A DNA stretch of 63,442 bases, counting the filler, from Rhabdomonas costata (taxonomy: Eukaryota), in assembly GCA_019059605.1 (NCBI GenBank). It is 55 parts of 55 records of this genome, joined end to end, with 100 filler letters (N's around TTAATTAATTAA, not from the genome) between each part and the next. Parts side by side here need not be neighbours in the genome. Positions count along the whole stretch, not along the records: positions 53,153 to 54,207 come from JAHMHO010031065.1; 54 more parts are not named here. One strand, written 5' to 3'. Below, piece after piece: positions 5,511-62,300 of this stretch; the first letter of the stretch is position 1, and each line of letters starts with the position of its first letter. The position numbers and the translations under genes are program-made. The notes under the pieces were generated by a model that saw only the letters and a list, made by a program, of their open reading frames with translations, did not search any database and was not told where the DNA came from.

Positions 5511-8500
5511 CTGCCACACTCCAATCTCTCCTTTCAAGAAGAAAATGAGAAATAGAGGTAAAGGGAGAAAGTAGACAGAGCTCTGCAGGGGGGCGCCCAC
5601 GCGAGCAAATATCCGCATCTGAGATAAATTGCGTCATGTTAAAAGTGAAAAAACTATAAAAACTATAGCCACACCCACCCNNNNNNNNNNNNNNNNNNNN
5701 NNNNNNNNNNNNNNNNNNNNNNNNTTAATTAATTAANNNNNNNNNNNNNNNNNNNNNNNNNNNNNNNNNNNNNNNNNNNNAGCCGCGCAATTCACCGACT
5801 GGACGGTTTTGTGGATTGAAGAGTTTCTTGGAGTCCGCCCCCAAGCTTGGGAAGAATTGTTCTGTGTTTGCCTCATCGAGATTGAGTGTCAAGGCATGCT
5901 GGAGGTGATATTCTGGTTTTGTAACTGTCGGCTTTGTTTTCTCATCTAATTCATGGGTCTCCCTGGTGCCCAGTCGGTCCCCGCGCAGCCTTAGCATGGC
6001 TGCTTTTTCAGAATTTTTTTTTAGAATAAAGGACAAGCCGCCACCACAGCGTAGTTCAAAGCGACAACCGGCGGGAAGAAAAAAACAAATACTTGTGGTC
6101 GGGAACCTCAGCGCGGGGACTACGGGTGTTCAAAGAGAAAAGGCGTACGGGAACATATTTTCACCCACCGCTAAAGCAGCTTTCTGTTCCATTACCTGTT
6201 TCCCAGGGCCAGGCCCAGGATCCATTGGAAGCGGGGTTATTCCGGGATGCCAAGACACGGTATATAAAACCCCAAATCGGTCAAAGAAAAGATTGCGCCT
6301 ATGCGCCCGGGGAGGCCGCCGATCTGGACACCCTCCGGTGAAACGCACTGTCAACGGCGGTTTGGGCGTGGGCGGCCTTACCCCCCGGCACGGCACGTAA
6401 CGGCCCCAAAGGCCAAAGGCCCCAACGCCCATATCCCTGCGCCGCCCAACGGACAAAGTAAAGCGACCTTAAAAAGCCGATGATACAATTGCGGGGGGTC
6501 GGACGGGCACCGGGAATTCACAACAGAATCGATGGCCCGGCAAAAAAAAACCAGAGAAAAAGGCAAACAGGAGGCCGCGCCGCGAACAAAAACACACACT
6601 TAAGGAAGGGGAAACTTTCGACTCCCCAACGGAAGGGCCAGATTATAGCAAACATTACTTCCCCCGAGCGAGCTGGCAATAAGCCCACTTGCACGGGAAC
6701 AACACAAACACGCACTTTAACGGAACCGGCTAACAAAAGCCCCAGCCCTCGGCCGACTGGCCGATTGATTGTCCGGAAGCCTGCATGTCCAATTGCGGTG
6801 CCCACACACCCCACCCACACCCACCACANNNNNNNNNNNNNNNNNNNNNNNNNNNNNNNNNNNNNNNNNNNNTTAATTAATTAANNNNNNNNNNNNNNNN
6901 NNNNNNNNNNNNNNNNNNNNNNNNNNNNGTTGTTGTTTCCCGTGGACGTGTCTTCTTTGCTGTTCTCTTGCGCACACGTTTCCGAAGGAAAATTGATGTT
7001 TTCGACCTTTTCTGCAGCACATTGTTCATTTTTACCTTTTGTTTGGTGCCCGCCCGCCTCAATTCGTTGCCTGCTACTGCTACGTGCGAAATGGTCATTT
7101 TGAACGCTGGCTTGACCCCTTCTCTTTCCCAGGGACATGTTTTCTGTGCTGTTCAGTTGTGTAAGCGGGGAGAAAACAAAAGTTTCCGAAGGGAACCACC
7201 TTTTGCGGACACTATCCCTACTTCACCGGCTTGCAAAAGGACAGCAGCACTTTGAATGGAAGGGCGCAATTCCCGACAATGGCAATCATCACCGGTAAAG
7301 CTGAATGCCATGCATCTGAAAGAAAGAAAGACAGGGCAAGTGACTTTGCACAACGAGTATCGGCACTATTGACAGGGAAACCCACGGATGAACAGAACAT
7401 GACAAAACTACGCAGGCGGACAGAAACGGGCCGCAGCGGCCCTTGCAACTCTCACGAGAGGCTTCCAAAGGAAAGCCGATGGCCGTGCATGGCAGCCAGC
7501 AGGTTCAGCTCGTGATCCAAGCGGCCGTCACAAAGGTCCCAGGTGCTGGTCTGCAAAGGCTGGAAACCAATGGAAACAACAGCCAGAAGTGGTGGTGAAA
7601 GGCAGAGGTTTCCTGGGCCAGAAGAAACGTTCGAAGCAATGGACGATTCCTCACGGCAACGATTGGAAGGTCTGCACGGTTTTCTTCCTTGATTCAGACG
7701 CTGCGCAAATCAACAAACTCGAAGCGAATCACAGTACCGAACACCGTTGAAGAATGGATGAGACCACAAGGAAAGGAGAGAGGCTAGGAGGGTTTTCAGC
7801 CCGAGAGGGACACTCAAGCGCATAAACCACCTAATCATCGCATGCGAGTTTCCACCCTAAGCACTGCAGAGCACTTCTGTAAAGAGATGGACACAGAGAG
7901 TTAGACGCTAGGAGCAAAAACCTGCGCTGGAGACTCAAAGTCCCGAAGGTCAACCGACTCGCTGCGGATGGGATGTGCGGCGGANNNNNNNNNNNNNNNN
8001 NNNNNNNNNNNNNNNNNNNNNNNNNNNNTTAATTAATTAANNNNNNNNNNNNNNNNNNNNNNNNNNNNNNNNNNNNNNNNNNNNGGGGTGTGGTCCATTA
8101 TCCTACATTGGGGAGGAAGATTTGGATGATTGGCTTGATGACAGCATTGTAAGGCCTCACTGTTGACGAGAACTGGTCTGGTTACATCCACAAGCTTCAA
8201 TGCCTTTCCTTATTTTGGAAGTGAAATTTGGAGCAGCAACACGGTTTGATTTTCCTGACTTGTGAACTTGGGACTCTTTAATCATTGCGAACGTTGCTCG
8301 TAACTATTGCTACAAACTCTTGCTTTTTAAGGCACACATTCATGTAATTGTAGCAAATGTGAATACAAAAACTAAGTTTGCTCGCAATGGAGATATGGTA
8401 GTTGCGGGTGTGTAGTTTCGTGCGTGTAATTGAAACTCTATCTTCCTATTCCTATTATGTTTTGATATGCTTTCTGCATCACTTCAATCATTTAATTAAC

Positions 8501-9317
8501 TGTGTGAGAAGACAGTGCAGATTATATTGTGAAAGAATAGCAATAGAGAGTTTAATATCATCCGCACATCCATCTATTTGTCATTGCGAATATGCAAACA
8601 CTCAGAAAATGAATGCCATTGAGCCCACGCCACATTTTGCCTGAGTTAACCAATCTCGTGCTTGTGATCCCATAAGGATGCTCCGGAGAAAGATTTGGTG
8701 CCAGAGGCTTAAAATCTGCTTGTAAAATGTTTCAGCAGTAAAGAGTTTTCAGAAACTATGCACAATATTGCCGCATGCTTTTACCTGGAAAGTGAAGAAA
8801 ATGTGATGATTGCAGCTTTAGACAATGTATTTATTCCCAAAGACGTGCCATTTGCATTACGGGCTTATATAGAGGCATTGCCACGCGCAGTGTTTTGAGA
8901 TTTAAGCACCACATCTCGGTTGTATCTGGAGTAATTGATGCTGAAACATGTAATTTTGGACTACTACCTCAATAATGGTGATTGTGTGGCCTGTTTTATG
9001 TTGTACATTATTCGGCAAATTTCTGGTAGCGTGCGATGTTAATGTGGTTTGAATCCTATTGATGTGGTTCGGTTTTTGAACTCCATGACGCCCCTGGTGT
9101 TTTAAAGTGATGACAAATGGCATGGCAGTTGGACGTAATTNNNNNNNNNNNNNNNNNNNNNNNNNNNNNNNNNNNNNNNNNNNNTTAATTAATTAANNNN
9201 NNNNNNNNNNNNNNNNNNNNNNNNNNNNNNNNNNNNNNNNGTGGTGGGTGTGTTTGGGTGTGGTGGTAACTGGCACAAGTCTGGGCTTGGATGAGGGTGA
9301 CAGATATGAGGACGTGC

Positions 9318-9547
9318 CTGGATGACCGCAATGACCTCCTCGTCGTGCAGGATGGGCATCGTCAGCACGGACTTGGTGAGATAGCCCATCAGGCGGTCAA
9401 TGTTTGGGTTGAAGTGAGGGTCCTGGTAGGCGTCGGCGATGGACATGGTCTTCCCGGTGCGCGCGACGTGCCCAGCGATGCCCTCGTCCAGGTTAAACCG
9501 AATCTCCACCCCGCCCGTCTTATGCGCGGCCTTCGAGCACAGCTGCC
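9318..9547 (-). CDS. Exon encoding a GAF domain (cyclic-nucleotide phosphodiesterase/cyclase type)
   Basis: EIRFNLDEGIAGHVARTGKTMSIADAYQDPHFNPNIDRLMGYLTKSVLTMPILHDEEVIAVIQ is a classic GAF signature. Acceptor ttgcag; ends CAG|gcacgt (GC donor). Confidence 0.9.
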
Positions 9548-10505
9548 CTGCAACCCCCCACCGGCAGTGATCGCCTGGGAAAGAAATCACACCCGAGTCA
9601 AACAACCACGGCACCCATGTACAAAACCTTTCAAAGGAATTCAAAGGAAGACACAGACCACAAGCAATTGCGAAGCATTCGACCACCCCCGCCGTTATGG
9701 AGACCAGCGCGTGATAACTGCAGCAATCGCACACGTCACTCCCGCGTCCGTATTCGTAACAACGCCCTTTCACCATCCGTGCGATTCGCAGATCCTCTCC
9801 CGTGGGATAAGTGTTTCGCCCTATATCCCTTCCGCGTGACCCACGACGGAACAAAATCATCCATCGCTGCCAAAAGTTTAGGAACGTTCGGAGCGATCGC
9901 TGGGCACGGGCGAATACCACGGGGGAAGTGCTACAGCCAAGATGTGTGGTCCTTGACCTTAAATAAATAATTAAGAGGCACTTTCAACTTCCAATTAGCC
10001 ACATTGTACTCACGCTGACACGAAGAACGCGCCGGGCCAACGCTAAGAGTTACAGCTCGATAGTCAAACGGTAACCAAGCCAACACACGCTATGACCCAC
10101 AGTTGCAGTGGCATACCATGCTCCTTGTCCACAACAAACCTGCGAGACAAACAGACACGAGATATCAAAAAAGCTGGGCAATATTTAGCTCTGGATGGTC
10201 CAAGAGCACTGGGAACAGGGAAACCTTTTCCATGCAGCCAATCACCAAACCAACCGGCATGTCAACATTCTACAAACCAGAAACCGAAAAACAAAANNNN
10301 NNNNNNNNNNNNNNNNNNNNNNNNNNNNNNNNNNNNNNNNTTAATTAATTAANNNNNNNNNNNNNNNNNNNNNNNNNNNNNNNNNNNNNNNNNNNNGTCC
10401 GAAGCTTGATCACGACCATAGCGGCACGTCACTGTACACGTGATGACATACCGATAGCACCCACAGAGGGCAGGATGACACACGCATCATTAAGGCCACT
10501 GACAC

Positions 10506-11551: not shown

Positions 11552-11762
11552 CATCAAACAGTTTTTTCATTGCTTTCATGTTTTTCTCTTCTTGTATCTT
11601 ATCTTCAATGGCGCGTTTTCTTGGTTTTCTTGCAATTTTTTTAATTGCTTTGAGCTGATTAGGTATTGGGCGTATCAACTTCATGAATTCTTCCGTCCTT
11701 TTTTGTGTTTCATTTCTTATATCAATCATATTTATAATAGTACTAGAATTTATATTCTCCAT
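11552..11762 (-). CDS. Lys/Ile-rich hypothetical protein of the PolB element, 3'-truncated
   Basis: ATG at 11762 after an AT-rich tract, open to the contig end; AT-rich codon usage like the PolB ORF. Confidence 0.5.
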
Positions 11763-11894
11763 CTATACTATAGGTTTAGAATATAAATTTTAAAAATTAT
11801 ATCTTTTTTAATTTTATATATACTTATTTTCTTAAGCCTATAATTTTTAAAAATTATATATTTTTAAAAATTTTATATTTTTACTAGTAGTATA

Positions 11895-11967
11895 GTAAGT
11901 TGGGAGCACCGTCCCAGTTTTACGAAGCCTGCGGCTTCGGAAAACTAGGACGGTGCGCCCAACTTAC
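11895..11967. repeat. Hairpin: 35-bp arms (32/35 paired), 3-nt loop
   Basis: gtaagttgggagcaccgtcccagttttacgaagcc-tgc-ggcttcggaaaactaggacggtgcgcccaacttac. Confidence 0.95.
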
Positions 11968-12055
11968 GTTCACTTTCATTCGCCGCCGCGCCGCCGCCAT
12001 TAGACTATCTGTTTGAGAGAGAGCCGCTAAACTGACTGTCCTGTACAAGTTAAAT

Positions 12056-12157
12056 ATTACCCACCCCGTCCATAATATCTAGCGCATGATACCACCCAGT
12101 CCATCCATAATACCAAGCGCATAATACCACCCAGTCCAGACATAATCTCTAGCGCAT
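12056..12157. repeat. Three imperfect direct repeats of about 32-35 bp
   Basis: Units approximate taccacccagtcca..cataat.tctagcgcat and end at 12087, 12122 and 12157. Confidence 0.9.
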
Positions 12158-12212
12158 ACTAGGATATTTTTGTATAATTTATTAAAAAAATTATATAATA
12201 ATTATATAATTT

Positions 12213-12607
12213 TTATTCTGTTTTAATCTCTGTTTTAATATCTGTTTCTTCAAGCGGTGCTTTAATATCTTTTTCTTCAAGCGGAGCTGTACATAAACCA
12301 TCACACATAATATTTCGTTTGTTATATTTTGCACTAAGGCCTGTTTTCGATGTTTTATACCAGTATATAGAGCCGTTAAATTGTCTCATTCCTATATTTT
12401 CACACATCATATCAACGTTTGAAAATAGAACTTTTTTGAAATTTTTGTAGTTTAAAAGTTTGTTATTTTTGGTTTTCTGTACACCTTTACTCGAAAATTT
12501 GTCTTTCTTATTCTGTTCACTAAGACAATAATATAATTTACTTGATAAGCAGATCATCCCGTCACCGATGAACTCGGTTTTAAACAAACCAGCTGTTCGA
12601 TTGTCAT
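12213..12607 (-). CDS. Family B DNA polymerase, C-terminal part (Polinton/adintovirus-like), 5'-truncated
   Basis: DNRTAGLFKTEFIGDGMICLSSKLYYC...KFSSKGVQK...NIGMRQFNGSIYWYKTSKTGLSAKYNKRNIMCDGLCTAPL matches the RTxGLFKxE / KxY / KGV / KR..DG..T.PL pattern of this PolB group. Confidence 0.85.
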
Positions 12608-12765
12608 NNNNNNNNNNNNNNNNNNNNNNNNNNNNNNNNNNNNNNNNNNNNTTAATTAATTAANNNNNNNNNNNNNNNNNNNNNNNNNNNNNNNNNNNNN
12701 NNNNNNNATTTTATTCCTTCTTCATTCAGCGACTATATTTTTGGCAATAAAGAATATTTCGAACA

Positions 12766-13410
12766 ATGCTTGCCCGCAGGTTCGTTTCAGGCGCAATGCT
12801 GCGGCACTTTGCAACTAAAGTGAAGGAGACCACAGGCATTCCAGGGTATCCGGTGAACCCAAACTGGCGAATGGCCCTGCTTGACCTTTACCAGGACAAC
12901 CTCAACCTGGTTCAGAGGCTTCCCGAAGACTCAGCGTACCGCAAAGGTCTCACAAACATCACCCTGCATCACAAGGCCATTGTGGAGTCCAGCAGTGACT
13001 ATGATGTGGTGGAGATGAAGATTGGGCTGGGTCAGGTTGTTGCGTGCCTGTGATAACCGCTACTGTTTCCCGACTTACCACTTAAGCTGACTGGCTGCAC
13101 TCGCAGAAAACGGCACCCACTGGCGCTAATAGGCCGCTGCGTGCAATTACAGGTTGAACAGCTCATTAGGATTGCCGAGGGTGAGAAGAAGCTGATTCAA
13201 GACATGCTTGTGTGGCGTCTCTGGGAAGCCGACCACAGCATTCTCGACCGGATGGATGTCAGCTTCCGCACCACCATTGGAGGGCACTACAAGCCCCGGG
13301 CTTACGAAAAGATGCTGGACATGGAGGAGGAGAAGCTTTTGCTGGAGAAGCTGCAGAAGGAAGCCGAAGAAGAAAAGGTTCGGGTGACCGCTGGAGCTAA
13401 GCAGCAGTGA
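12766..13410 (+). CDS. NDUFA5: Complex I accessory subunit NDUFA5 (B13), complete; exons 12766-13035 and 13153-13410
   Basis: Mitochondrial-type presequence MLARRFVSGAMLRHFA; KETTGIPGYPVNPNWR...LPEDSAYRK...IGLGQ|VEQLIRIAEGEKKLIQDMLVWRLWE. The 117-nt GT-AG intron restores the conserved GQ-V/IE junction. Confidence 0.93.
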
Positions 13411-16935: not shown

Positions 16936-17726
16936 CTGTGTTTTTTATGTTGAGCATGGAATGATTAGGACCTCACCTTCTGTGCCTGTCAGCTGCAAAA
17001 GCGCGCGGTGATTGCTCACACCCGAGCCCCCCTGCCATTGGTTCAACACCGCAAGATGAGTCTCTGGTCTCCGGAGTAAACCCCAAGCGCGCGAACATAG
17101 CGAGCGCGGTCTGTAAAATATGGCCCGTCAAAAGTGGGAGATCCAAACGTAAAACAGTCAAAACTCTGAGAAAGACCTAAAAATGAATGGGCTCCTTCAA
17201 TTGTCCGAAGGTAACCACTTTTGTCACCAAANNNNNNNNNNNNNNNNNNNNNNNNNNNNNNNNNNNNNNNNNNNNTTAATTAATTAANNNNNNNNNNNNN
17301 NNNNNNNNNNNNNNNNNNNNNNNNNNNNNNNATGTATATAGGCTAAAAAGACTTCGAATGGAAAACCGTCACATACCATTTTCTGAGTTTTTGGGTGTTA
17401 CTTACCTTAGAATGCAATCCAATTAAAACTGCGACCTTCAGATGCACATGCACACACATTCAAATCCCGAAATGAAACGTCACCGCAATGAAACGTCAGA
17501 GAGAACCCTTCTCTCACTCCCATTCGCTCCTGCGCATGAGTTGAACCAAGTTCGAAAGCAGTTTGATGTGCATGCACCCCGCCCTGCCCGCGTCAAGACG
17601 ATAAACCCTGTGCTTCGGGTGGGACTATTGTGATATTCAATTTCCTTTCATCCAAGGCGCTCATTTCCCATATGACTTCATCTTTGTCACGAAACGATTC
17701 CGGTTCTGTTCTTTGCCGCTAATCAG

Positions 17727-18343
17727 TGGGGGATATGAAGCTCTTCACTCCGGGCGAGGGCGCCAAGCCTGGCTTCTTGCACATTATTGAGGTCACGCCT
17801 GGGTACACCCACGCTGGTGATGTCACAGCGGTGATGGCCTCCCAGGGGAACTACTGGCCCAGCTACAACCTCCCTTACTTCGACGACATTTCTCTGCGTT
17901 TAGGAGCCAACTTCACCTGCACGAAAAGGGGCCCAACGTTTTGCTATAAGACGAGCTCTCGGGCCAATATTTTCCGGCGCGACCACCACACGGTGCAGAC
18001 CCTGTCCGACATGAAGCGAATGATCCGATACAACAACTGGCAGAACGACTCTCTTTCTCTGGGGGATGCCTGCGAGCCTATTGCTTGTCGGTATGACCTC
18101 CGGGTCCCTCCCCTGGGGAATTCCCCAACTGGGGCCACGGATGGCAAGGTGAGCTCTTGGGAGATGGTCGTGCAGCAGGGAGGCGCGATGTTCGCGGTGA
18201 GTGGTCCCACGACGGATCAGCAACCTGCCTTCCGATGGTCGCAGTACCCGGGCAGCCTGCACCTTGGGCAGCCCGAGGTGTTCGACTTCGATTGGGTGCG
18301 GTTCGACTTCAACGACAGCCTGAGCGACACCCGCGAAATTTAA
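17727..18343 (+). CDS. Phospholipase B-like protein (PLBD family), terminal exon
   Basis: YWPSYNLPYF, RANIFRRDH, MIRYNNWQND, IACRYDL, GATDGKV, SGPT...QPAFRWS and HLGQPEVFDFDW motifs; taatcag acceptor; stop at 18341-18343. Confidence 0.93.
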
Positions 18344-19543: not shown

Positions 19544-19668
19544 NNNNNNNNNNNNNNNNNNNNNNNNNNNNNNNNNNNNNNNNNNNNTTAATTAATTAAN
19601 NNNNNNNNNNNNNNNNNNNNNNNNNNNNNNNNNNNNNNNNNNNGTGTTGGTGTGTTTGGGGTGTTTGG

Positions 19669-24267: not shown

Positions 24268-25166
24268 GGGGTGTGGGTGGTCAGTTTTGGAAACAACGAG
24301 GAAGAAGCGAGAGCTCGTATTCCAGCTTCCCCACACTGTGCACTGACCAATTCCAGGGTAGTGAGACCAGGAAAGCAGGGCGACCGCGTGAGTGCATCCA
24401 TGCCGGACTCCCCGATTGGGTTGGTACCAATGGCTAAGGTCTCTAGTTTTGGAAAATGAGGTGAAGCCGCAAACGCTCGAATCCCTGCAGGCCCTATTAA
24501 ATTGACCTCCAGAGTCAAGGTCTGCAGGCCGGTATGAAAAGAACAATCCGCAAGAGCTTGAATTCCCGGATCTCCGATATTATTGTAACGCGCATAGAAG
24601 GAGATAAGGTTGGGAAAAAAGGACGAAGCAGAAAACGCCTGCATTCCACCATCCCCAATTAAATTAGAGCAAACATCTAAGGCGGTCAGGCTGGTAAGGA
24701 AAGGTGAGGCCGCGAGGGCTTGCATTCCCCATTCTTCGATCTCGTTGTAGCCCAAGTTCAAGCACCTTAAGCTGGGGAACATAAAAGACCCCACAAGCGT
24801 TTCCATTTCTTCAAACCCGATCTGATTGTAGCCCAAATCCAGGGATGTGAGATTGGGAAAGACGCATGCAGCCGGGTTCGCGATCGCCTCGGCAACGGCA
24901 GTTTCTATCAAAAGCACCGCAAGATCCTTGCCATCGACCAGAATCTCCGCAGCATGGCAACCTACGCGAATGCTACGACGCACGGCAGCTCTTAGAATGG
25001 GATACTCAAGAACATCGGGAAACCGCAGAACCACTTTCCAGTTCGGAGCCAAGTACTCATCCACCAGCTCGCGAAACTGTCGGCAAACCTGCCGCAGGCC
25101 CAGCTGAGGCTTCAGCCGAAGAAATCGAAAGATGGTAACTAAGGCGTTCTCTGGAAGCGTGGGCAT
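24268..25166 (-). CDS. F-box + leucine-rich-repeat protein, intronless, 3'-truncated
   Basis: N-terminal LPENALVTIFRFL...LRQVCRQFRELV F-box, then seven 27-aa LRRs (LxxLxLxxNxIGxxGxxALAxSPxFPx). Confidence 0.9.
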
Positions 25167-25425
25167 CAGCTTTCATTTCATGCTTTTCGTTGCAGCTGTA
25201 GTTGTGGGAAGACTGCAGGTAAAGGAAGAGAGAGGCCAAATTAACTGATATGGATGAAAAACATTACATTCGAATTTATCCGTTCAGCGCACGACTGCAA
25301 TTTGTGATGCGTTACAAAACAACNNNNNNNNNNNNNNNNNNNNNNNNNNNNNNNNNNNNNNNNNNNNTTAATTAATTAANNNNNNNNNNNNNNNNNNNNN
25401 NNNNNNNNNNNNNNNNNNNNNNNGT

Positions 25426-28801: not shown

Positions 28802-28980
28802 NNNNNNNNNNNNNNNNNNNNNNNNNNNNNNNNNNNNNNNNNNNNTTAATTAATTAANNNNNNNNNNNNNNNNNNNNNNNNNNNNNNNNNNNNNNNNNNN
28901 NGGGTTGTGTTGTAGACCCCATCCTCAGTCCCTCCATGATTCGGAAATTCTGATGCGAGCTTTCTTCCATTTCTTGGCAG

Positions 28981-29957
28981 TGCGTGTGCCTTCTGCTGTA
29001 GATGCCGTCGAGATGGCGTTCGGCGCTGCAGTATGCCGCGACGAGGCGTGGGAGCGCTCCTTCTGTGATCAGCTGCACCACCACAGCCACATCCTGGATG
29101 AGCACGGGCACAACCCCCTCCTGATTGCTGCCAGCGGGCTGATCAGCGCGGGCAGCGTGAACGCGCTGGTGTTTGCCCAGCAATGCCTGGCATGGGCCGA
29201 GGAGCGGTACCCCTCGGACGTGCTGGCGGTGGCGGCGTGCCGGTGGTGGACCACAGGGGAGGAGGACCCCGCGCGGAAGGCCCCGTACCGAGTCATCAAC
29301 GGCACTCTGCGTCCCACGGGGCGAAAGACGGCTGCCTCTCTGGAGCTGGTGATGCCCGCGGTGTGTGTGCTGACGTGGGCCCTGGAGAACCTGCCGAGGA
29401 GCGTGGAGTTCGCTCGGAAGTCCGCGGCGGTGTACCGCGTGGTGGGATGGCTGTTCCCCAACCCTCAGCAGTACGACCCGCAGGCCCACTTCCGGGAGGG
29501 CACAGTGATCACGACGTATGACTTCCGGTCTGCTAGCCGGTCCCTGGCCATCGCGGCGAACGCGAACTTCTCGGCGCCACGGTGGGTGGGCGAGGATGTG
29601 CAGGACACGGGGCACTACCTTCTGATCGAGGACCTTCTGCCTGGGGTGAGTGTGGATGAGCTTGTGTCTGGGGCCATCGCGGACCCGTCGCTGTGCAAGG
29701 GTCACATCGAGGGCACCCACTTTGATTATGAGGTGAGGAACATGTCCGGAGAAGGGCCACCGGATGCCACAGGCTTCCAAGCTTTGGGCCCGGGGAGCTC
29801 CGGGTCCTGTCGTGTGGAGGTCGTTTTGACCAGCTCGGACACCGCACAGACCATCCGGGGCTTCTCCACGCCGAACTTCGCCACTCACTTTGTGATTGAG
29901 AGTGCCTGTGTGGCCTACGTGGCACCGGTGAGCTGCTACCCCGAGGAGGACGAGGTG
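28981..29957 (+). CDS. NAD:arginine mono-ADP-ribosyltransferase (R-S-E clade) domain, long exon
   Basis: PYRVINGTLR, ALENLP, VYR (29436), FRSAS (29529), HFVI...VSCYPEEDEV (E-x-E at 29946-29954); polypyrimidine-cag acceptor at 28980. Confidence 0.8.
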
Positions 29958-40145: not shown

Positions 40146-40447
40146 CTTGGTAGAACTTTGTCCAAGATCTTAGGTGCTTTCATTACCCTCCTGTTTAAAC
40201 AACGATGGAGGCTTTTCATCGTGTTACCCTTGATTCTTTGGTGCTCAAGCACAAGGCGAAGCCATCACTCCTTGTCAATGATCCACGACGGTTGGGGGAA
40301 TTTTTTTCCCTTGGGGGACTTAACCACCAACCCAAACACACCCACACNNNNNNNNNNNNNNNNNNNNNNNNNNNNNNNNNNNNNNNNNNNNTTAATTAAT
40401 TAANNNNNNNNNNNNNNNNNNNNNNNNNNNNNNNNNNNNNNNNNNNN

Positions 40448-47444: not shown

Positions 47445-48132
47445 GTGTGGACTTCGTGGCGGTCTCGTACGTCCGCAACGGCCAGGACCTGGCTCCGGCT
47501 CGGGAGGAGCTCCGCCGCCGCAAGTCGATCGTGCCCCTGGTGGCGAAGATTGAGCACCCCTCCGCCCTGAGGAACATGGCGGAGATCCTCAGGGAGGTCT
47601 GATTCTTCAGGGAGGCAGCTGATTTTTCTTTCACCGGTTAGGAAGCCACGAAATTGACCTGTACAACAATGGCGCAAATCGGTTGGAGGGAACTGAAGAA
47701 GACGAACGGAACCAACAAAACTGCTTCCTTTCAAAGTCAGGTCATTGGACGAGGTAGGTGAATTCTTGTCGTCGTGCGCGTCCTTCCTTGGTGAGGTCCT
47801 CAACGCCTGTGTGCATTCCATAGCTTTCGATCTGCCTTTTTTCTCTGCAGGCCGACGCGGTGATGGTGGCGCGTGGGGACTTGGGGGTGGAGATCCCGAT
47901 GGAAACGCTCCCGCTGGCCCAGGAAGAGATCATCCGTGCCGCGCTAGGCCGTGGGCTGCCCGTGATTGTGGCTACGCAAGTGTTGGAGAGCATGCAGTTC
48001 AACCCCACCCCGACCCGGGCGGAGCTCACGGACATTGCCACGGCGATTCGTCAGGGCACGTCCTGCCTGATGCTCTCCGGGGAAACGGCGACCGGGCAGT
48101 ACCCCATCGAGGCGGTGACCACGATGGCAGAG
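47445..48132 (+). CDS. PYK: Pyruvate kinase; exons 47445-47596 and 47851-48132
   Basis: [30 protein letters not shown] and MLSGETA motifs; phase-0 GT-AG intron. Confidence 0.97.
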
Positions 48133-50942
48133 GTGTGCGTTTTCTTCCTCAGTCGAATTCTCTCCTGGACTCGAGGTCGGTGGCCCTGAGATCCGCTGCA
48201 GCCACACTAAGACCAATAATACTTCAACTAAATGTAGAACTTAACATGCTGGCAATGTCTCAAAGACCTCCGCCAGCCTAGAAACGAGGAATGCGCCACG
48301 GAAAGTACCGTTTTTTTTACTTTGCTTTTACTTTGACACGTCCAGCGACTAAATACCACGCAGTCTGCGGGCTTTTTCTTGGGACTGAATTTCAAAGGGT
48401 GTCATATGGTTTCAGTCATATGACACCCACCCNNNNNNNNNNNNNNNNNNNNNNNNNNNNNNNNNNNNNNNNNNNNTTAATTAATTAANNNNNNNNNNNN
48501 NNNNNNNNNNNNNNNNNNNNNNNNNNNNNNNNGTGTGGTTATCAACGACATTCTGGTCTCCCACCTCCACCCCCATCTCTTCACTTTCATTTTTGAGCGG
48601 TCTCCGAATAGAAAGTCGGAAAGGCCTTTCTTTGCTGGTCGACCGAAGCTGAAAGGGTGGTGGTTCGGGAATACCGCCGGCAGCCATACCTTGCGGCTTT
48701 TTTGTCCACTGGGAAACTGGGACACTACGTGTAGTTTCTATTGAGTTTTGAGGTCCCAATGTTTGTAAATCAAACAAGATTAACCGTTGCGTGCCATCAA
48801 AAGGAGTCATTGGCCGAGAGGGGGGATGACTTCAGTTTTAACTCAACGCAATGTAACTGGTTTGACGTTTTTAGTTTGCGACGACGGAAATTGGGTGTGT
48901 GCATTTAGCACGTGGAGCAGCCATACAAAGGGAATGTCCTATGAACCCCAACCGAAGTGACACTAGTGAGCTCTGTGTTTTCCGTTACATAACGACGACG
49001 AGTTTTGCAGTAGATGAACCCATTTCATTTCCCCCATTTCCCCTGTATTAGGCTTTGTGCTGGACCCAACACACTGGCGATGACCCCTAATTGTTGGAAG
49101 CTAGAATTAGCCCCCAGGGGATCGAAATGAGGGTTTGGCTTGATCAGCAGCCGATTGGCCACCAAACGGGTTTTCTTTTCTGCTGTCCATTGATAAACTT
49201 TTTTGTGTTCTGCCTTTATTGAGTTTTTCAAAACGATATGGCCCTCCAGCACGCAGTGAGTTGTATGTCGAAGCTGTGGTGATATGGTTTGTGGTGCAGG
49301 AGGGCGGGTCGGGGTAAAAAGTAGCACCTTCACTCCTGCGTTCTCCTCCGTTCAGTACTTTTGCGCAATCAGTGAGCCCGCCGCGGTCCGTGCTGAGCTC
49401 CCCTGGGGCCCCCTTTGGGGCGCTGCTGAGTGAGATCCGCCACAGCCTCTCCGAGCCAGGCTCGCTGTGCCGCAGCCTCATGCGCGGCTCCCACACCTTT
49501 ACTCACATCCACCCCAACTCCAGTGCCCCCTCCCAGTCCCACCACCATCACCACCACCACCATCACCGCACCTCTCCCACCACCACANNNNNNNNNNNNN
49601 NNNNNNNNNNNNNNNNNNNNNNNNNNNNNNNTTAATTAATTAANNNNNNNNNNNNNNNNNNNNNNNNNNNNNNNNNNNNNNNNNNNNGGGGTTGTTTTAG
49701 GGACCTGTCGGATACGATGGGCATCGGCGGAAAGCCTCAACAGGATGGACGGGGCCTGACAAGTATTTGCAGGGTCCAAATTCCTTTGGTGTTGTGTGGA
49801 GCGGAGTCGGCTCAAATCGGAGGCTTCGGCTGGGGAGAGTGATCAAACATTAAGGAGGTGTAGGTGTGGACATCGTGACGTGCCAGCCATCCTCCCCTGA
49901 GCAAGCATTATGCGAATGTGGCTGGGGATCGCATGGGCAGCGCACCTTTCACCAAGCCTGGGATGAGCCTGATCAACGACATGATATGATTTCGCTGTCC
50001 GATAAACACAATACCCACCTGCCAGATGTGGGATTGGGGAGGGTGGTCGGTTTGAAGTGGTCCACCTTCAAACTGGTTGGAATGAATTGCTTGGAATTGA
50101 GCAGAGAACCTTACTGAGTCCATGCGAGTCCATGTGCTTCAAAGAGAAAGACGAGATGGCCAACACGCTGGCTTCACCTGTTTTGGAGGACTGCCACGCA
50201 ATTCTGAGTGCAATCATGCCGGCTTTTTGGTACCGGCTTTTTTCTTCCCTGAAAACGGCTTTTGTTGTTTTGGCACACTTCTCCAGAGCGAGAATATATT
50301 CGCCATGCCTTCGCCCACAAGAGGAAAAAACAGGGAGCACCACCCCACTATAGACTGCAAAGGGTTCCTCTTCTCTTTATTTCTCTTCTCTTGGCGGCAA
50401 AGGGATGGTTCACGATGGGCAAGAAAGGGGGGTTCCTTCCCCACACCGCTCAAACCTCTCTCTTGAGGAAAGGAAATGAGCTCTTAGGCAAATGGCAACG
50501 AATGGCAGCAACAATCGGGGGGAGCAACACGGACGAGGGGAAAGACAAATGGGCAAAGATGATCCCTTTGACCACGGCTGAGTTGTAGGGAGGGGTTTCC
50601 ACAATCCTCTCAGATGAGGGTGTGGGGCAGGCACTCAAGGGGTAATGAACGAGTTGTGTAGGGGAATGTAGAGCAGAAAAACACACACACGAGGACCTAA
50701 ACTGAAGCGATGAAGGGCACGTGTAGTTGTAAGCACAAAAAANNNNNNNNNNNNNNNNNNNNNNNNNNNNNNNNNNNNNNNNNNNNTTAATTAATTAANN
50801 NNNNNNNNNNNNNNNNNNNNNNNNNNNNNNNNNNNNNNNNNNTGTTTTGTTGCCTTGTTACTCAATGGGTTTGTGTGCATTCTTGCCCTGTATTCTTGCG
50901 CTGCGCTGTGGCCCGACCCCGGTGGTGTGGGGTGAATTGCAG

Positions 50943-51159
50943 GTACATGCGGTGGGTGGTCCCGTGCCTGGGCTGGGCGGTTACCGGGGACTACCGTGCC
51001 TACCGCTACCTCAATGACAGTGTGGCTGAGTTTCCGTCTGGGGAAGAGCTTTGCGTGGTGCTTCGGCGTTGTGGGTTTACCACGGATCCTCCGCGGCCCA
51101 TGCTATTGGGTGCAGTCACGCTGTACTCGGCACGCGTGCCACCACACGAAGCACGTTGA
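50943..51159 (+). CDS. UbiE/MenG/COQ5-family quinone C-methyltransferase, terminal exon
   Basis: YMRWVVPCLGWAVTGDYRAYRYLNDSVAEFPSGEEL...GF...RPMLLGAVTLYSA; ttgcag acceptor; stop at 51157-51159. Confidence 0.85.
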
Positions 51160-53152: not shown

Positions 53153-53944
53153 GTGTGGTGGTTCTCAAAGGTCTGCGACGGGGGGTGCATTGCGCGGAAG
53201 AGCTCGGGGTTGGAGGACTCAATCCGCAGGAGGTACCTACACATACGTTGGGCGTGGCGTTGGGTTGGTTGACACAGTCGAAACGAACAGGGCCACTGGG
53301 AACAACAGTGCGAGGGATTGAGGTCGCTATCACGAACAGGGCCACTGGGAACAACAGTGCGAGGGATTGAGGTCGCTATCGCACAATCTATAAAGGAGAA
53401 AGGATCTTGCATCCCTTGCATCTCTTTTCTGCCTCGTGCTGAATGCAACCTGATAATAAGACCGCGAAAGCTCCATGGGGTGCGCCAGAGTCCTATACGC
53501 CTGTCTCAGCTTCAAGGTTGGTAAATGCGCTTCACAGAGAAAAAAACTCAGGGGGGCTGAGCAGGAAAGGGGGGGGGGTTAACATCCGTTTCGCCATCTC
53601 AAAAAACCCATCACGAAATATCCATTGCAAAACTCGAAAAATACGCGCAGTGGGACACCGATGTTTGTGCTGGGAGGGCTCTGCTCAGCAATACGCACAT
53701 GCTCTTACCTGTGAGCCCCAGCGTCGTACAGGGCCTGGTAGTCCTCCTCGGGAAGCTCCCCCACGCTGAGGCTGATGCCCAGGCCCTGGCCGTGCTGGCG
53801 GTCGTTGGCTACGGTGCGCTCGCGGATCTTCTGGATCGCTGTGGTGAGATACTTCATCCGCTCTGGGGTCCGGAGCTCCCCGGACTGCAGCATAAGGCTG
53901 CCGTAGCGGTTCTCCTGGGCCCAGTCCGCAACCTCGAGAATTTC
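53153..53944 (-). CDS. hydE: Radical-SAM [FeFe]-hydrogenase maturase HydE (or HydE part of HydEF); exons 53944-53709 and 53236->
   Basis: EILEVADWAQENRYGSLMLQSGELRTPERMKYL...LGISLSVGELPEEDYQALYDAGAHR-YLLRIESSNPELFRAMHP. LQSGE, SLSVGE and AGAxRYLLRxE match HydE; phase-2 GT-AG intron. Confidence 0.88.
53283..53380. repeat. Perfect 49-bp tandem duplication in the hydE intron
   Basis: acgaacagggccactgggaacaacagtgcgagggattgaggtcgctatc twice. Confidence 0.95.
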
Positions 53945-56900
53945 CTGAGAGACAAACACCCGTGTATAGCACGGCCAAAGTACTGCAACTAAAGCGCAAA
54001 TGACAGCCAAAACGAAAGAGAAGGGCGAGGAACGATTCCGTACATAGGTATTCAAAAGGTGAAATTCAACAGCTGGCTTTTTGGGACGGGGCATAATCTT
54101 ATCACCGTTACAACGTATTCGTATTTTCCGATTCTCCAGGCTGCAGCTAGCTTGAAAGGGGTGGGGTAAAATGCACGCCAGAATACACATGTGGCGGCAT
54201 AGCCTAGNNNNNNNNNNNNNNNNNNNNNNNNNNNNNNNNNNNNNNNNNNNNTTAATTAATTAANNNNNNNNNNNNNNNNNNNNNNNNNNNNNNNNNNNNN
54301 NNNNNNNTGTTGTTGGTTAACTTTTGGTTGGTGTATCGTTGCGTGCAAGTGCAGTTCTATAGACGTGCCGCGTGCACTATAGCGTTTTCTTAGCCACTGC
54401 CACAACCCACCTTCCCATTTTTCTCGACGTTCTACTTTTGGGAACGTCATGCTGCTTGGGCTTTCCCTTCTTCGTCGGGATGCGGTTGCTATCTCACTTC
54501 GTACGCCCACTCTGTAACAAGTCATCCGCTGCCCCCCACAGAACGGCGTGGCATCTGCATCTGCAAATGCTATGCGGTCTTCCCTTAGTCTCAGTCAACC
54601 TTCAGTTCCACATCGTCGCTAATTGTTGCCTATGCCACCCTCCCAATCTCCGGTGATACCTGTGAGCTCAGACTCCGTGCACAACACTGCCCATACGTGT
54701 GCCAACGAACAGGATCAACGAAAACATTACAAATCCAGCTCGCTTTAGTCGGAAAAATACAACGGATGAACTCAAACGGGTTGGGTCCATAAGTTTTGCA
54801 TTCTGGGTATGAGGATGCACTTTTCCTTGGATCCAACCTCCCAGCAAACGCCAGTACCACAGCCAGTGAAGCACCCAACTGACTCTCAGTCGATCGGCGC
54901 ATGGCAATCCAAAAACATACGCCATACAGGGCACCAACAAAGACAAAAAACACGACGAAGACAAGAAAATGAATACTCCAACCAAAAGGGAGGGAGTCAG
55001 ACCTCATCTCGTCCCTTTTCGCGCTACACCTCACAAAGAGAAGAGAACCCTAACTTAATGCACACACACTGCGAAATAAAGGACAAATGTGAACGAGAGA
55101 AGGAACCGCTGATATACCCAACGACGATGAGACCGCGACCACACTACACCCGTTCACCCGATCAAGGGGATCAGTTATTGCACACCGTGGCGGAGGAGAG
55201 AAAAGGGATAAGGCTCGGAGGGCAATTGCGGCGACATTGCGCCCCAGTAAAGGCGCTTTCCAAGTAACCGTCCCCTGACTCCAGCCATGAGGACACGACC
55301 TCTGATGATAGTTCAGCAATGCTCGGAGGGGATGCGGCCGTTAATCCCCAGCACACCACAAANNNNNNNNNNNNNNNNNNNNNNNNNNNNNNNNNNNNNN
55401 NNNNNNTTAATTAATTAANNNNNNNNNNNNNNNNNNNNNNNNNNNNNNNNNNNNNNNNNNNNTGTGGTGGTTGGCCGCAGCGGATATCATGTGGACAGAG
55501 TCTTGTGTTAACGCAATTCTGTCGTATTTATCGTTCGGTTCGTTGTCACGGTTGTCTACGAAACCTCAGTCTTGAATACTCACATTCATTCCTTACTGTC
55601 TTTCGTAGATCGTAGCTTCCTAACGAGTGAATAGTGCGTTACTTTAAATGTAATTATTAACAGGGTTTTTCCGATGAATTGTGGTTCACATTTCTGGGTC
55701 CTCTGCAAGTATCTAACTCTCTTAGATTCTGATGTTGATGGTGATTGTAATCCATTCAAAACAAACGCTATATACGCTATCTACGCTGGGGCATTTTTCC
55801 GTTGCACGGAAGAAGACAGGACGGCGATTAGGGTGTTACCTTCTTGGGAAGTGAACTGAACCTGACAGTTTTTCATGCTTTTCATTGCCATTCCAGCGGT
55901 ATTGCACGGCAGTGTGCCTGGGTGGAGAGGAGGGCAGAAGGGGCCTCTGTGCAGAGCCGCCGGGGGTGAGAGAGCCGGGAGGCTCTGGGGTGGAGGTAAT
56001 ACTGTCAGGGAGTGTAACTTTGGCCCAGGGAGCACGGGTGGAGGCCCCACGGAGGAGGATTCCCGCGGTGGCGGTGGGATGACGTGAGCGCAGTGGGGGA
56101 GTGCCCTCGAGGCTTCGACGGCGAGGACGGGAAGGGATGGCGGGGTGAGCCTCAGGGGATGTGGTGCGCGGCCTGGAGGCAACCCCACCCCCAAACAAGG
56201 AAGCCCCTAAACCGCTCGGTTCCACATAGGTTTGTGTCTTCGAACGTGCTTACACTCAGCGGAGAGAAGACCTTTACACGGCGGCCGCGGAACATGAGAG
56301 CACACTGCTATTGACAGGGTGGATAAAAAAGTACTCGAGGGCAAGGGGATTCTACCGACGTCTGTTAAATCAATAATTTGAAATACTAACCCAAAGCGTT
56401 TTTTAAAAAGCAGCAACGCGGAAAACAGCATTGCATAAAAGCTTTCGGTTTCCGGAATCAACATAAAGAATTATGTGAAAGAGGTGCAAACAGTATCCAG
56501 CGACAACAAACCNNNNNNNNNNNNNNNNNNNNNNNNNNNNNNNNNNNNNNNNNNNNTTAATTAATTAANNNNNNNNNNNNNNNNNNNNNNNNNNNNNNNN
56601 NNNNNNNNNNNNATGCATACTCCTTTCCTCGTCATTCACTCCTCTTTCCCCTTGGGGCGGGTGTTCTGCTTTTTTTAAACTGCATTGAAGCACAGTGTTG
56701 AACGCTCGTGTTGTAAGTACACTTGTTGAATGCTCGTCCGTAATTCACGAGCTTGTAAATTCGGGTTGAAGACATACTTCGCCGCAAACCCGGCTCGTCA
56801 TATAACACTGCTTGTGATCGTCGTGACTGTTCGTCATTTTCCAGGCCAGCTCATCGGCGCCACGCCGAACTTGTTCCGGTGCGGGAGGCCTCGTTGCTGG

Positions 56901-59332: not shown

Positions 59333-62300
59333 GTGCTTTGCTTTCCTCTCCCTCCCTGCCTGCTGGCCCCGTACCGTACCCGTTACTTGGGGCAGCCCTC
59401 TTTCTCCAATGGAGGGGCGTATAGAAGATCTTGCGTGCGCGAAACAATGGTGAAGGGCAAGCTGCTCTGCTTCCTTCAACGTAGCTGAGCAGGCTTTGGC
59501 AGGGTCGGCTTGGTCATCGTTTTTCAGGAGCCTTTCGTTTACTGCTTTTGCGCCACTTTTGTCTACTCTGTGTCTTTGTGTGTTGAAACATCGCGGGTTT
59601 GTACCCCTTTTGTACGGGCATGCCCTGTGATGATGATGATGATGTTAGCTCTTTGGATTCTTCTTGGCTGGTTTGATGAGTACACGGGGACACTCACTAC
59701 TCGGTGCTTGCATTACGCTGCTTGCGTGTTGGCATAACTGCACCTTACCTACACGGTCACACCCTTTCACCCTTTCAGGACGCTTCTTCCCTCTCACACA
59801 AAGGGGACAAGCATCCCATCACCAGAAGTGTTCTGCAACCAACCGCATTCGAGAACAAACCAGTGCATCGCTACATCGCTACCAATCAGTCAGGAGCCTC
59901 CTGAGAGAGAGGATCAATAGAGTGAGGTGGCCCAGAGGAGAGGACAAAGTGATTATTAAAATTTCATACACACACACNNNNNNNNNNNNNNNNNNNNNNN
60001 NNNNNNNNNNNNNNNNNNNNNTTAATTAATTAANNNNNNNNNNNNNNNNNNNNNNNNNNNNNNNNNNNNNNNNNNNNGGGTGTGTGGGTCATTCTCACTC
60101 TTGGCGTGGAATTTTTGCTTGGTGTTTTGTGTTTGCGGGTTTCACTTTCGCGTGATGGTTTGTGCTTTGGGGTCTGGATTCGTGTCGTCGGATGTAATGT
60201 GGGTGTTTGGAAGGTAGTCATGGGTATCGAGTGCTTTGTCCCGTGGGTGGGGTGTTGATGTAGGTCTTCAGGAAGAGAGTTCGAGGTTACGGGTTCGGGC
60301 TGTCGTCTCCTGGGGTGTTGGGCGTAGGATTCACAACAGTACTGGGGGTTGAGATGCGTTACCGCCCCTTGCGTTTGGTGAGCTTCTTGTTGGGGTTGGC
60401 GTTGCGGTGTCGTGGCTTGGTCTTTGGGTTGCTGACTTTAGGTAGCGGTGCCTGTCGTCGTGGGTTTGGGCATTCGTGTTGGGCATTCTAGTTCGGGCAT
60501 TGAAGGCTACGTGTTCGCTTTTGTGGATATGGCGGTAGAACCGGTGCTTGAGTTTGCCTCTCTGGATATGACTGTAGGACCATGGTTTCGCTTCACGGGG
60601 TTGGGTGTCTAATGTGGATATGTGCTGTACTTGATGTGGGCTTCTGGGTGCCGGTGTCGAGATGGAGGGGTTGGAATTGGGGTGGGTGTGGGTTCTGCAG
60701 TTTCTTCAATGGATGCGCGCTTTCGGTATCAGTTGGTTTGGGTTTCAGGTTCCTGTCTCGGGTGTCTGTCTTCGGTATCAAGCTTTCGTTGTTATCCTGG
60801 GGATGACGCGCAAGCGTAGTGTGGGTGGGTTTTGGTGTCGGCGTTCGGTATCTTGGCGTTTGTGGTGTTTCCATCGCTGTGGTTGCTTCTTCTACTTTGG
60901 GTGTGCCGGGGGTACGTTTCTGTGTGTTGCTTGCGTGGGTTGCTGTGTTGTGTGTTTCTGGGGTGGGCTTCGTGGGTTTGGGTGTCGGATGGTGTACTGG
61001 GTGTTGGATGGGATACAATGAGTGGGTTGGTGGATTCTTGAGCTTTGTGGATGTTTGGAGGTGAAGCGCGGGGTGTAGGTGGTGCTTGGGGTGTACTGAG
61101 TGGTGTTGCGGATGCTGGATGTGGGGTTGGGTNNNNNNNNNNNNNNNNNNNNNNNNNNNNNNNNNNNNNNNNNNNNTTAATTAATTAANNNNNNNNNNNN
61201 NNNNNNNNNNNNNNNNNNNNNNNNNNNNNNNNGTTTGAGGGGGAGGCACCTGTAATACACGGGAAGCTAGAATTCTAACCCACTCACTAACTAACTAACC
61301 TACGGGCGTATCTTTTCCTGGGTTTATTTTGCTGGGAAATTTCTAATTAGCACGCTAATAATGTACCTGTTATGATTCGCCAGTCTCAGGAGGCGGCGAG
61401 TGTCATGCCATGACACCTTCTGAGGAAAGACCGAATCTACTTCGTCGAGCTGGGGTCATTTTCCAATGCCGCACAATACAGGCCCCATACACTGGTTACT
61501 GAAGAGCGTATCTCGAGCGAAAGTTCCCCCGAAAGTTAAGGACTCTTTAAGGCTGATAGGTGTCGGTGTCTCATAGCTACAATTGAAAAGGAGCAAAATC
61601 CCGATCAGTTATGTAATCTCAAGAAAGTGTAAAACTTGCGTTTGAGTGATTTTGCCCCCCCCCTCGAAGAGATTTTCGGCTTAATAATCATCGACTCCAC
61701 TTGCGCCCATGCACTCACGTGAATTCTCTGATGTTGCTGTCCGACCTTTCGCATATATTGGGATCGTTCGTAATGTTCTGGCTTAATTTCATTATACATC
61801 CTACACAGGGTGCCCTTGCCTTACGTTGGCAGCCGTTCAAATGTGTATGGTACGTTTTGTTAGAAGTATTTTTGCTTCGAACTCATGGCCGAATCAGTCG
61901 TGGTGTCATGTCCTAATAGGTGGACGAGACGTGCACCCTGTAGGGTCCGTAAAATGCTTGTATTCTCCACTTCCTCAAGTATCTTTGCACCTTTATCTTC
62001 ACGCATTTGCTGTATATGCAAAAGACGCCAGGCCTGCTTCGGCTTACACCTTTTATTCGCATGATATTCTGCATTTCAGGCGTGTACCAAAAATTGTGAG
62101 ACTGGATTGCGCCGGGAGCGCCGGGAGGACGTGTGTTCAAGATGTGCGAACAAAAGCGCATTGCGGCAGGGGCACCTCAGGCTCGCGCGAACGGCGACTG
62201 TGAAGAGCGGTCCGCCAGTGACGCTTCCCAGCACCTGTTAAGAAAACGCACTCCCTTGGAATGAACCCTATCCAACAAAACCAAAAANNNNNNNNNNNNN

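Follow-up and report, generated by a model that had tools for sequence, protein, structure and literature searches.

The assembly of Rhabdomonas costata holds what is probably the middle part of a nuclear, intron-bearing HydE gene, most likely belonging to the main euglenid of the sequence analyzed, and this gene would imply a set of HydE, HydF, HydG and HydA. That the fragment is a genuine eukaryotic HydE gene we regard as nearly certain. HydE is a TIM-barrel radical-SAM enzyme and acts as the radical-SAM maturase of [FeFe]-hydrogenase. The window, that is the whole stretch of DNA analyzed here (63,442 nucleotides), consists of 55 contigs of 1048-1066 bp each, separated by spacers that are runs of N around TTAATTAATTAA.

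The HydE locus occupies the minus strand of the contig at 53153-54207 (1055 bp) and comprises two coding segments, exons A and B, on either side of a conventional spliceosomal intron (Table 1). Exon A opens after a polypyrimidine tract and CAG, is bordered by ...TGTCTCTCAG|GAA upstream and AG|GTAAGAGC downstream, and translates as EILEVADWAQENRYGSLMLQSGELRTPERMKYLTTAIQKIRERTVANDRQHGQGLGISLSVGELPEEDYQALYDAGAH. Exon B is preceded by TGTGTAG|G and its open stretch, YLLRIESSNPELFRAMHPPSQTFENHH, continues off the end of the contig. The intron interrupts an Arg codon (AG|G) between its second and third bases and the two exons are in phase, giving 106 spliced residues, 102 of them reliable, or about 31% of the HydE domain. 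The splice junction is backed by a gap-free alignment with homologues, and the 13-mer that spans it, YDAGAHRYLLRIE, is identical in the HydE of Naegleria gruberi. A first-pass annotation of this DNA had proposed two exons that splice in phase into a HydE-type segment; the exon coordinates that it gave are correct, and the motifs that it quoted, MLQSGELRT, SLSVGELP and AGAHRYLLRIESSNPELF..HP, can all be read in the exon translations. It had also argued that the intron rules out a bacterial contaminant. This holds, as the HydE segment is split by a conventional GT-AG intron, but another eukaryote is still allowed as the source.

Table 1. Positions of the HydE gene segments and of other features along the window
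Feature	Position	Strand	Description
Upstream intron 3' part or 5' flank	53945..54207	-	polypyrimidine tract, CAG acceptor at 53947-53945
HydE exon A	53944..53709	-	236 nt = 78 codons + 2 nt; EILEVADWAQENRYGSLMLQSGE...YDAGAH + AG of Arg
HydE intron	53708..53237	-	472 nt, GTAAGA...TGTAG, conventional spliceosomal type (GT-AG)
HydE exon B, reliable part	53236..53164	-	G of split Arg + 24 codons (YLLRIESSNPELFRAMHPPSQTFE)
49-bp tandem duplication in HydE intron	53283..53380		2 copies, 0 mismatches
G/T-only tail	53153..53163		11 nt at contig end, probably amplification-primer derived
G/T-only ends, examples	1-24, 9241-9264, 19644-19667, 40324-40347		look like amplification-primer remnants in the assembly
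NDUFA5 (complex I) exon	12751-13050	+	PF04716, E 1e-13, 51.2 bits against a cut-off of 27
UbiE/COQ5-family exon	50845-51156	+	E 9e-7, profile positions 169-215
Phospholipase B	17723-18340	+
Pyruvate kinase barrel	47824-48186	+
MCM P-loop	38257-38709	-
F-box plus LRR	24270-25172	-
GAF domain	9243-9983	-

The contig holds no more of the gene than these two exons. The upstream part (53945..54207) contains no HydE-like exon according to tblastn with eight HydE or HydEF proteins, whose matches are exons A and B alone. The CX3CX2C cluster motif maps upstream of position 84 of the HydE profile and lies, like the N- and C-termini, outside the contig, which stops at profile position 178; a HydF domain fused to HydE would lie beyond this point. 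Within the intron, the tandem duplication of 49 bp may be a real minisatellite or an artefact of amplification or assembly. No further copy of this repeat was found in the window; as it is not common to other contigs, it provides no link between the HydE contig and a host. A search of the whole window against Rfam gave no match.

The ends of the contigs call for caution. Runs of at least 8 nt made of G and T only mark 64 of 110 contig ends, whereas the share among internal positions is 1.2%, and a motif G-K-GTGTTTGG is common to five contig ends. G/T-only primers of this type are used in commercial whole-genome-amplification kits. The HydE contig carries such a tail, which on the minus strand encodes a terminal N-H-H. 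The sole departure of the fragment from the near-invariant columns of HydE is a His encoded in this tail, at a column where 56 of 56 HydE rows have Arg. Since the last 11 nt are a G/T-only tail, we consider N-H-H unreliable and trust exon B only to 53164; the exons of the first-pass annotation stand, but the end of its span, which ran from 53153, includes the tail. More generally, primer-like contig ends can corrupt terminal codons wherever an exon extends beyond its contig.

The family assignment draws on profiles, pairwise identities and diagnostic residues. Taken alone, exon A matches the NCBIfam HydE profile TIGR03956 with an E-value of 4e-4 (19.7 bits, profile positions 84-151), over a span that includes the LQSGE and SxGE motifs, and exon B matches it with an E-value of 0.12 (11.6 bits, positions 154-178). 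The two matches are collinear, and the gap of two profile positions between them corresponds to the His and the split Arg. These scores are to be read against a curated cut-off of 254.6 bits that applies to the whole protein, of which the contig covers positions 84-178 of 340. No other radical-SAM family of NCBIfam matched exon A or B at an E-value of 1 or below, so that the HydE-type segment announced by the first-pass annotation is borne out as a radical-SAM segment. Single exons gave no radical-SAM match in Pfam, only a weak chance match to CHMI (E-value of 0.2), and phmmer against the PDB with exon A alone found nothing beyond chance similarity to a LOV histidine kinase (E-value of 0.23).

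Comparison with whole proteins is more telling. By blastp against a small database of retrieved HydE proteins, residues 1-105 of the 106-residue fragment align at 46-60% identity, with E-values of 1e-31 to 9e-39 among the 45 matches listed. A search with exon A for longer relatives yielded one match among 54 candidates (P0003), which is 55% identical to exon A and 79% identical to exon B, and whose ...AG-VK-R-YLLRIE aligns with ...AG-AH-R-YLLRIE of the fragment. P0003 in turn resembles a Seminavis robusta (diatom) protein named HydE by NCBI, with 82% identity in the searched region and 71% overall. All 30 relatives that were scored on NCBIfam reach values 2-4-fold higher for HydE than for PylB, BioB, ThiH or HydG. 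For 29 of them HydE ranks first, the exception being the fusion protein P0144, in which HydF comes slightly above HydE; 24 exceed the HydE cut-off of 254.6 bits and the other six are partial models or fall just below it. Across 56 HydE rows, 23 columns reach an identity of at least 90%, and the fragment keeps 22 of them. It also has, after a helix, a loop extension that starts with T-x-A-x-D. The same motif is found in Cantina, Chromera, Amoebidium and the green algae Enallax and Edaphochlamys, and is missing from bacteria and diatoms.

What such a gene would do can be read from its family. In HydE, a CX3CX2C cluster cleaves SAM reductively. HydG supplies an Fe(CO)2(CN)-cysteine unit, whose cysteine sulfur is then attacked by the 5'-deoxyadenosyl radical. 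The resulting Fe(I) species dimerizes to give the [2Fe] precursor, which HydF completes and delivers to HydA. The segment on the contig includes the LQSGE and SxGE motifs, which presumably contact SAM, as well as the strand with RYLLRxE. By analogy with characterized family members, the encoded protein would bind a [4Fe-4S] cluster and SAM, take up Fe(CO)2(CN)-cysteine, the product of HydG, and convert it to the di-iron precursor that HydF would hand to the hydrogenase HydA. Given this role in H-cluster assembly, the gene would imply a HydE/HydF/HydG/HydA set used at low oxygen. The search of the window itself for further HydE, HydF or HydG exons (tblastn with three HydG, four HydEF and four HydE proteins) found none, a null result that is uninformative for 58 kb of a large genome.

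Published data add to the pathway. The main text describing R. costata makes no mention of hydrogenase (PMC8219788), and the predicted mitochondrial proteome that accompanies it has two maturase rows in the accessible part of its Table S8. One, RCo052057, is HydG-like: it matches a Chlorella "hydrogenase assembly factor" (8e-173) and the HydG of Pygsuia, with targeting scores of 0.898 (TargetP) and 0.977 (MitoFates). The other, RCo018024, is labeled "[FeFe] hydrogenase H-cluster maturase" and has a TargetP score of 0.864; in nr it best matches an "iron hydrogenase assembly" protein of Chlorella (2.5e-245), and in Mitominer the HydF of Trimastix (1e-120). As far as these rows go, neither transcript has an orthologue enriched in the mitochondrial proteome of E. 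gracilis. Both belong to the same pathway as the HydE fragment and are predicted to be mitochondrial, and neither was returned by the search with exon A. Among 25 algal genomes, a table that leaves euglenids out, the seven with HYDE all have HYDA and HYDF, and six of them have HYDG (PMC8003979, Table 4). Together, the maturase rows of R. costata and the co-occurrence in algae raise the odds of a working, probably mitochondrial maturase set in a heterotrophic euglenid, which does not in itself demonstrate the hydrogenase. We lean towards the organism also having HydA, and the targeting scores of the maturase-like transcripts make the mitochondrion the likely compartment.

The first-pass annotation had pointed to an NDUFA5 exon and a UbiE-type methyltransferase exon on other contigs as signs of a respiring mitochondrion, and both exons are present (Table 1). 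The domain scan covered every open stretch of at least 81 residues, 300 out of the 830 that reach 45 residues or more. With the assembly taken as one organism, the NDUFA5 exon marks a membrane-bound electron transport chain. The UbiE/COQ5-family exon could belong to Coq5 or to the related rhodoquinone protein RquA, which has been reported in euglenids. At its most ambitious, the interpretation would be that a euglenid which respires and combines complex I with rhodoquinone and wax-ester fermentation also possesses a full mitochondrion-targeted set of HydA and HydE/F/G. This would be the first H2-producing mitochondrion in Euglenozoa. As Naegleria has a maturase of the same eukaryote-wide type, the hydrogenase system would go back to the ancestor of Discoba, and Euglena gracilis and the kinetoplastids would have lost it. 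We put this scenario forward tentatively and hold it to be less probable than not; an H2-producing mitochondrion, taken by itself, is likewise doubtful.

A more sober possibility is that the gene is a real euglenid HydE in an organism that has no active [FeFe]-hydrogenase, and is either decaying or engaged in other radical-SAM chemistry. E. gracilis offers a precedent, as the accessible text of PMC10407231 reports no HydA-type gene in it, only a NAR-family protein, and barely detectable H2. HydA is also missing from the accessible part of Table S8, where all five occurrences of "hydrogenase" fall within the RCo052057 and RCo018024 rows (PMC8219788), and the search with exon A brought up no expressed counterpart in R. 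costata. Against this, the fragment retains all but one of the 23 near-invariant HydE columns and neither exon is interrupted, which argues against decay; the HydG-like and HydF-like transcripts of R. costata and the company that HYDE keeps with HYDA in each of the seven algal genomes also speak against this possibility. We therefore consider an orphan or relic gene unlikely, and retain a HydE that is part of a maturase set as the better reading.

Another question is whose gene this is. The GC content at third codon positions of the HydE exons (0.86-0.89) compares with 0.86 for pyruvate kinase, 0.83 for MCM, 0.77 for GAF, 0.75 for phospholipase B and 0.54 for F-box/LRR, and the HydE contig has a GC content of 0.647 in exons against 0.502 in noncoding DNA. 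In tetranucleotide profile it is the 14th closest of the 55 contigs to the mean. When all contig pairs are ranked by tetranucleotide distance, its pairing with the phospholipase B contig comes within the lowest 5%, and its pairings with the UbiE, pyruvate kinase, MCM and NDUFA5 contigs rank at 11%, 13%, 54% and 57%. This composition is consistent with one genome, although the evidence is weak on 1 kb of sequence. The phospholipase B exon (206 residues) is 75% identical to EukProt RCo015823 and 82% identical, over 114 residues, to RCo015824, the next proteins being at most 46% identical; the prefix RCo denotes R. costata transcripts (PMC8219788). As phospholipase B resembles R. costata proteins, the bulk of the window is probably euglenid, a conclusion drawn from a single marker. 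No R. costata protein came up in the database search with exon A, although RCo proteins are included there; the listed maturase transcript may lack the exon A region, the DNA may stem from a species other than R. costata, or the index may have missed the protein.

The HydE contig could instead come from another eukaryote that was sequenced together with the euglenid. The assembly is heterogeneous, with one contig of GC 0.317 and one of GC 0.641; no euglenid HydE is among the retrieved proteins, of which diatom-like, Naegleria and environmental ones come closest, at about 60% identity. Yet the HydE contig is typical of the window in third-position GC, in the contrast between exon and noncoding GC and in tetranucleotide profile; it has the same primer-like tail as companion contigs, and maturase-like transcripts are listed for R. 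costata in the accessible rows of Table S8 (PMC8219788). A foreign eukaryotic origin thus seems quite improbable to us, and the gene probably belongs to the euglenid that makes up the bulk of the window.

The two contigs of extreme GC content are among four (11552-12607, 28902-29957, 60078-61132 and 8085-9140) whose composition is unlike that of the rest of the window; of the remaining two, one has a very strong GC skew and one a GC content of 0.40. The contig of GC 0.641 is open over its full length on both strands, with no Pfam match. Bacterial DNA, organellar DNA or repeats may account for these four. A partial euglenid spliced-leader 10-mer, which occurs once in the window, was discarded as evidence, since 28 of 100 shuffles also reach it.

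Phylogenies were computed with three BioB and five PylB proteins as outgroups, all above the cut-offs of their own families. The IQ-TREE set of 66 rows contains the fragment, 41 eukaryote-type HydE, 16 bacterial HydE and these outgroups; it leaves out three poorly alignable HydG rows and about 200 other HydE-like rows of the 270-row set used for FastTree. In the IQ-TREE analysis, the 58 HydE rows including the fragment are split from BioB and PylB by a branch with 99/99 support, so that the comparison with BioB and PylB suggested by the first-pass annotation leaves the fragment on the HydE side and no grouping with either. The fragment also falls outside the clade of the 16 bacterial HydE, which has 100/100 support. 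In FastTree, every named eukaryotic HydE falls, with the fragment, into one clade of 60-62 rows (support 95-98). The two methods disagree on its sister group: the neighbor is the anaerobic stramenopile Cantina marsupialis in FastTree (84), in a group with both Naegleria species (80), and Chromera velia in IQ-TREE (80/33), where green-algal HydE-HydF fusions form the adjoining grade. Given this disagreement and a length of 106 residues, we make no claim on vertical descent or transfer.

BioB and PylB belong to the same superfamily of radical-SAM TIM-barrels and share G22, G62, G76, Y80 and E85 with the fragment, but they differ from HydE at nine of the 23 near-invariant columns, and at all nine (Q20, E63, Y69, L81, L82, R83, I84, H96 and P97) the fragment keeps the HydE-specific residue. 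That the fragment belongs to BioB, PylB, ThiH, HydG or another such radical-SAM member is therefore hardly credible: the weak single-exon matches to HydE and the silence of Pfam on both exons invite this reading, but no other family reaches an E-value of 1, the identities of 46-60% are to proteins above the HydE cut-off, and both the 99/99 branch and the nine columns separate the fragment from BioB and PylB.

Within HydE, the fragment can be set beside several known proteins. The HydE of N. gruberi (P0059, in a 90% cluster with XP_002671091.1) is 56.6% identical over 106 aligned columns and, like the fragment, of the eukaryote type, with the junction 13-mer in common, although a sister relation between the two is unsupported in the IQ-TREE tree. 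Naegleria belongs to Discoba, as do euglenids, and is an aerobe with a complete respiratory chain; its full HydE gene and its HydA/F/G set are known, whereas 31% of the protein is seen here. Within the family, the nearest structures that have been solved are those of Thermotoga maritima HydE (3CIW, 3IIZ, 7O1O and others), to whose chains N. gruberi HydE scores 249 bits, against 62 for HydG (4WCX) and 47 for PylB (3T7V). The fragment spans the barrel strands with LQSGE, SxGE and RYLLRxE, as in T. maritima HydE; the latter is bacterial and intronless, and its chains are not reached by phmmer with exon A alone.

The top identities (55-60%) are to HydE of the diatom type (Seminavis robusta P0005, P0003 and about 20 relatives), whose full-length members pass the HydE cut-off; these proteins form their own 100/100 clade and lack the loop extension of the fragment, where they have a 9-residue gap. 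The shortest path distances to the fragment in the IQ-TREE tree are those of HydE-HydF fusions (Edaphochlamys P0126, Paulinella P0144 and Amoebidium P0054), which share the T-x-A-x-D loop motif but have a longer loop insert and identities of 46-48%. Two observations concern these relatives themselves. The diatom-type proteins P0005-P0027 make up a large, tight clade above the HydE cut-off; according to the accessible text of PMC10407231, citing Atteia 2013, HYDEF and HYDG were not found in Thalassiosira pseudonana and HydA is limited to some centric diatoms, and the role of HydE in diatoms may merit attention. The ichthyosporean Amoebidium parasiticum (P0054 and its cluster) has HydE-HydF fusion transcripts of up to 994 aa, a fused architecture outside algae.

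Hydrogenase maturases mark the capacity for an active [FeFe]-hydrogenase, and they are known in scattered eukaryotes, including the aerobes Naegleria and Acanthamoeba. The textbook view of euglenid anaerobiosis is that of a wax-ester fermentation without H2. Full-text searches of the literature brought up no paper discussing HydE, HydF or HydG in euglenids, and the sole trace of euglenid maturases there is the two unremarked rows in the accessible part of Table S8 of PMC8219788. An intron-bearing HydE in genomic DNA indicates that at least one such gene is nuclear and not the result of bacterial contamination. Judged from its sequence, a euglenid HydE hints at hydrogen metabolism in the group. 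The fragment bears on the vertical inheritance of this enzyme set within Discoba, and it makes testable the question of whether H2 is produced in the respiring mitochondria of heterotrophic, sediment-dwelling euglenids.
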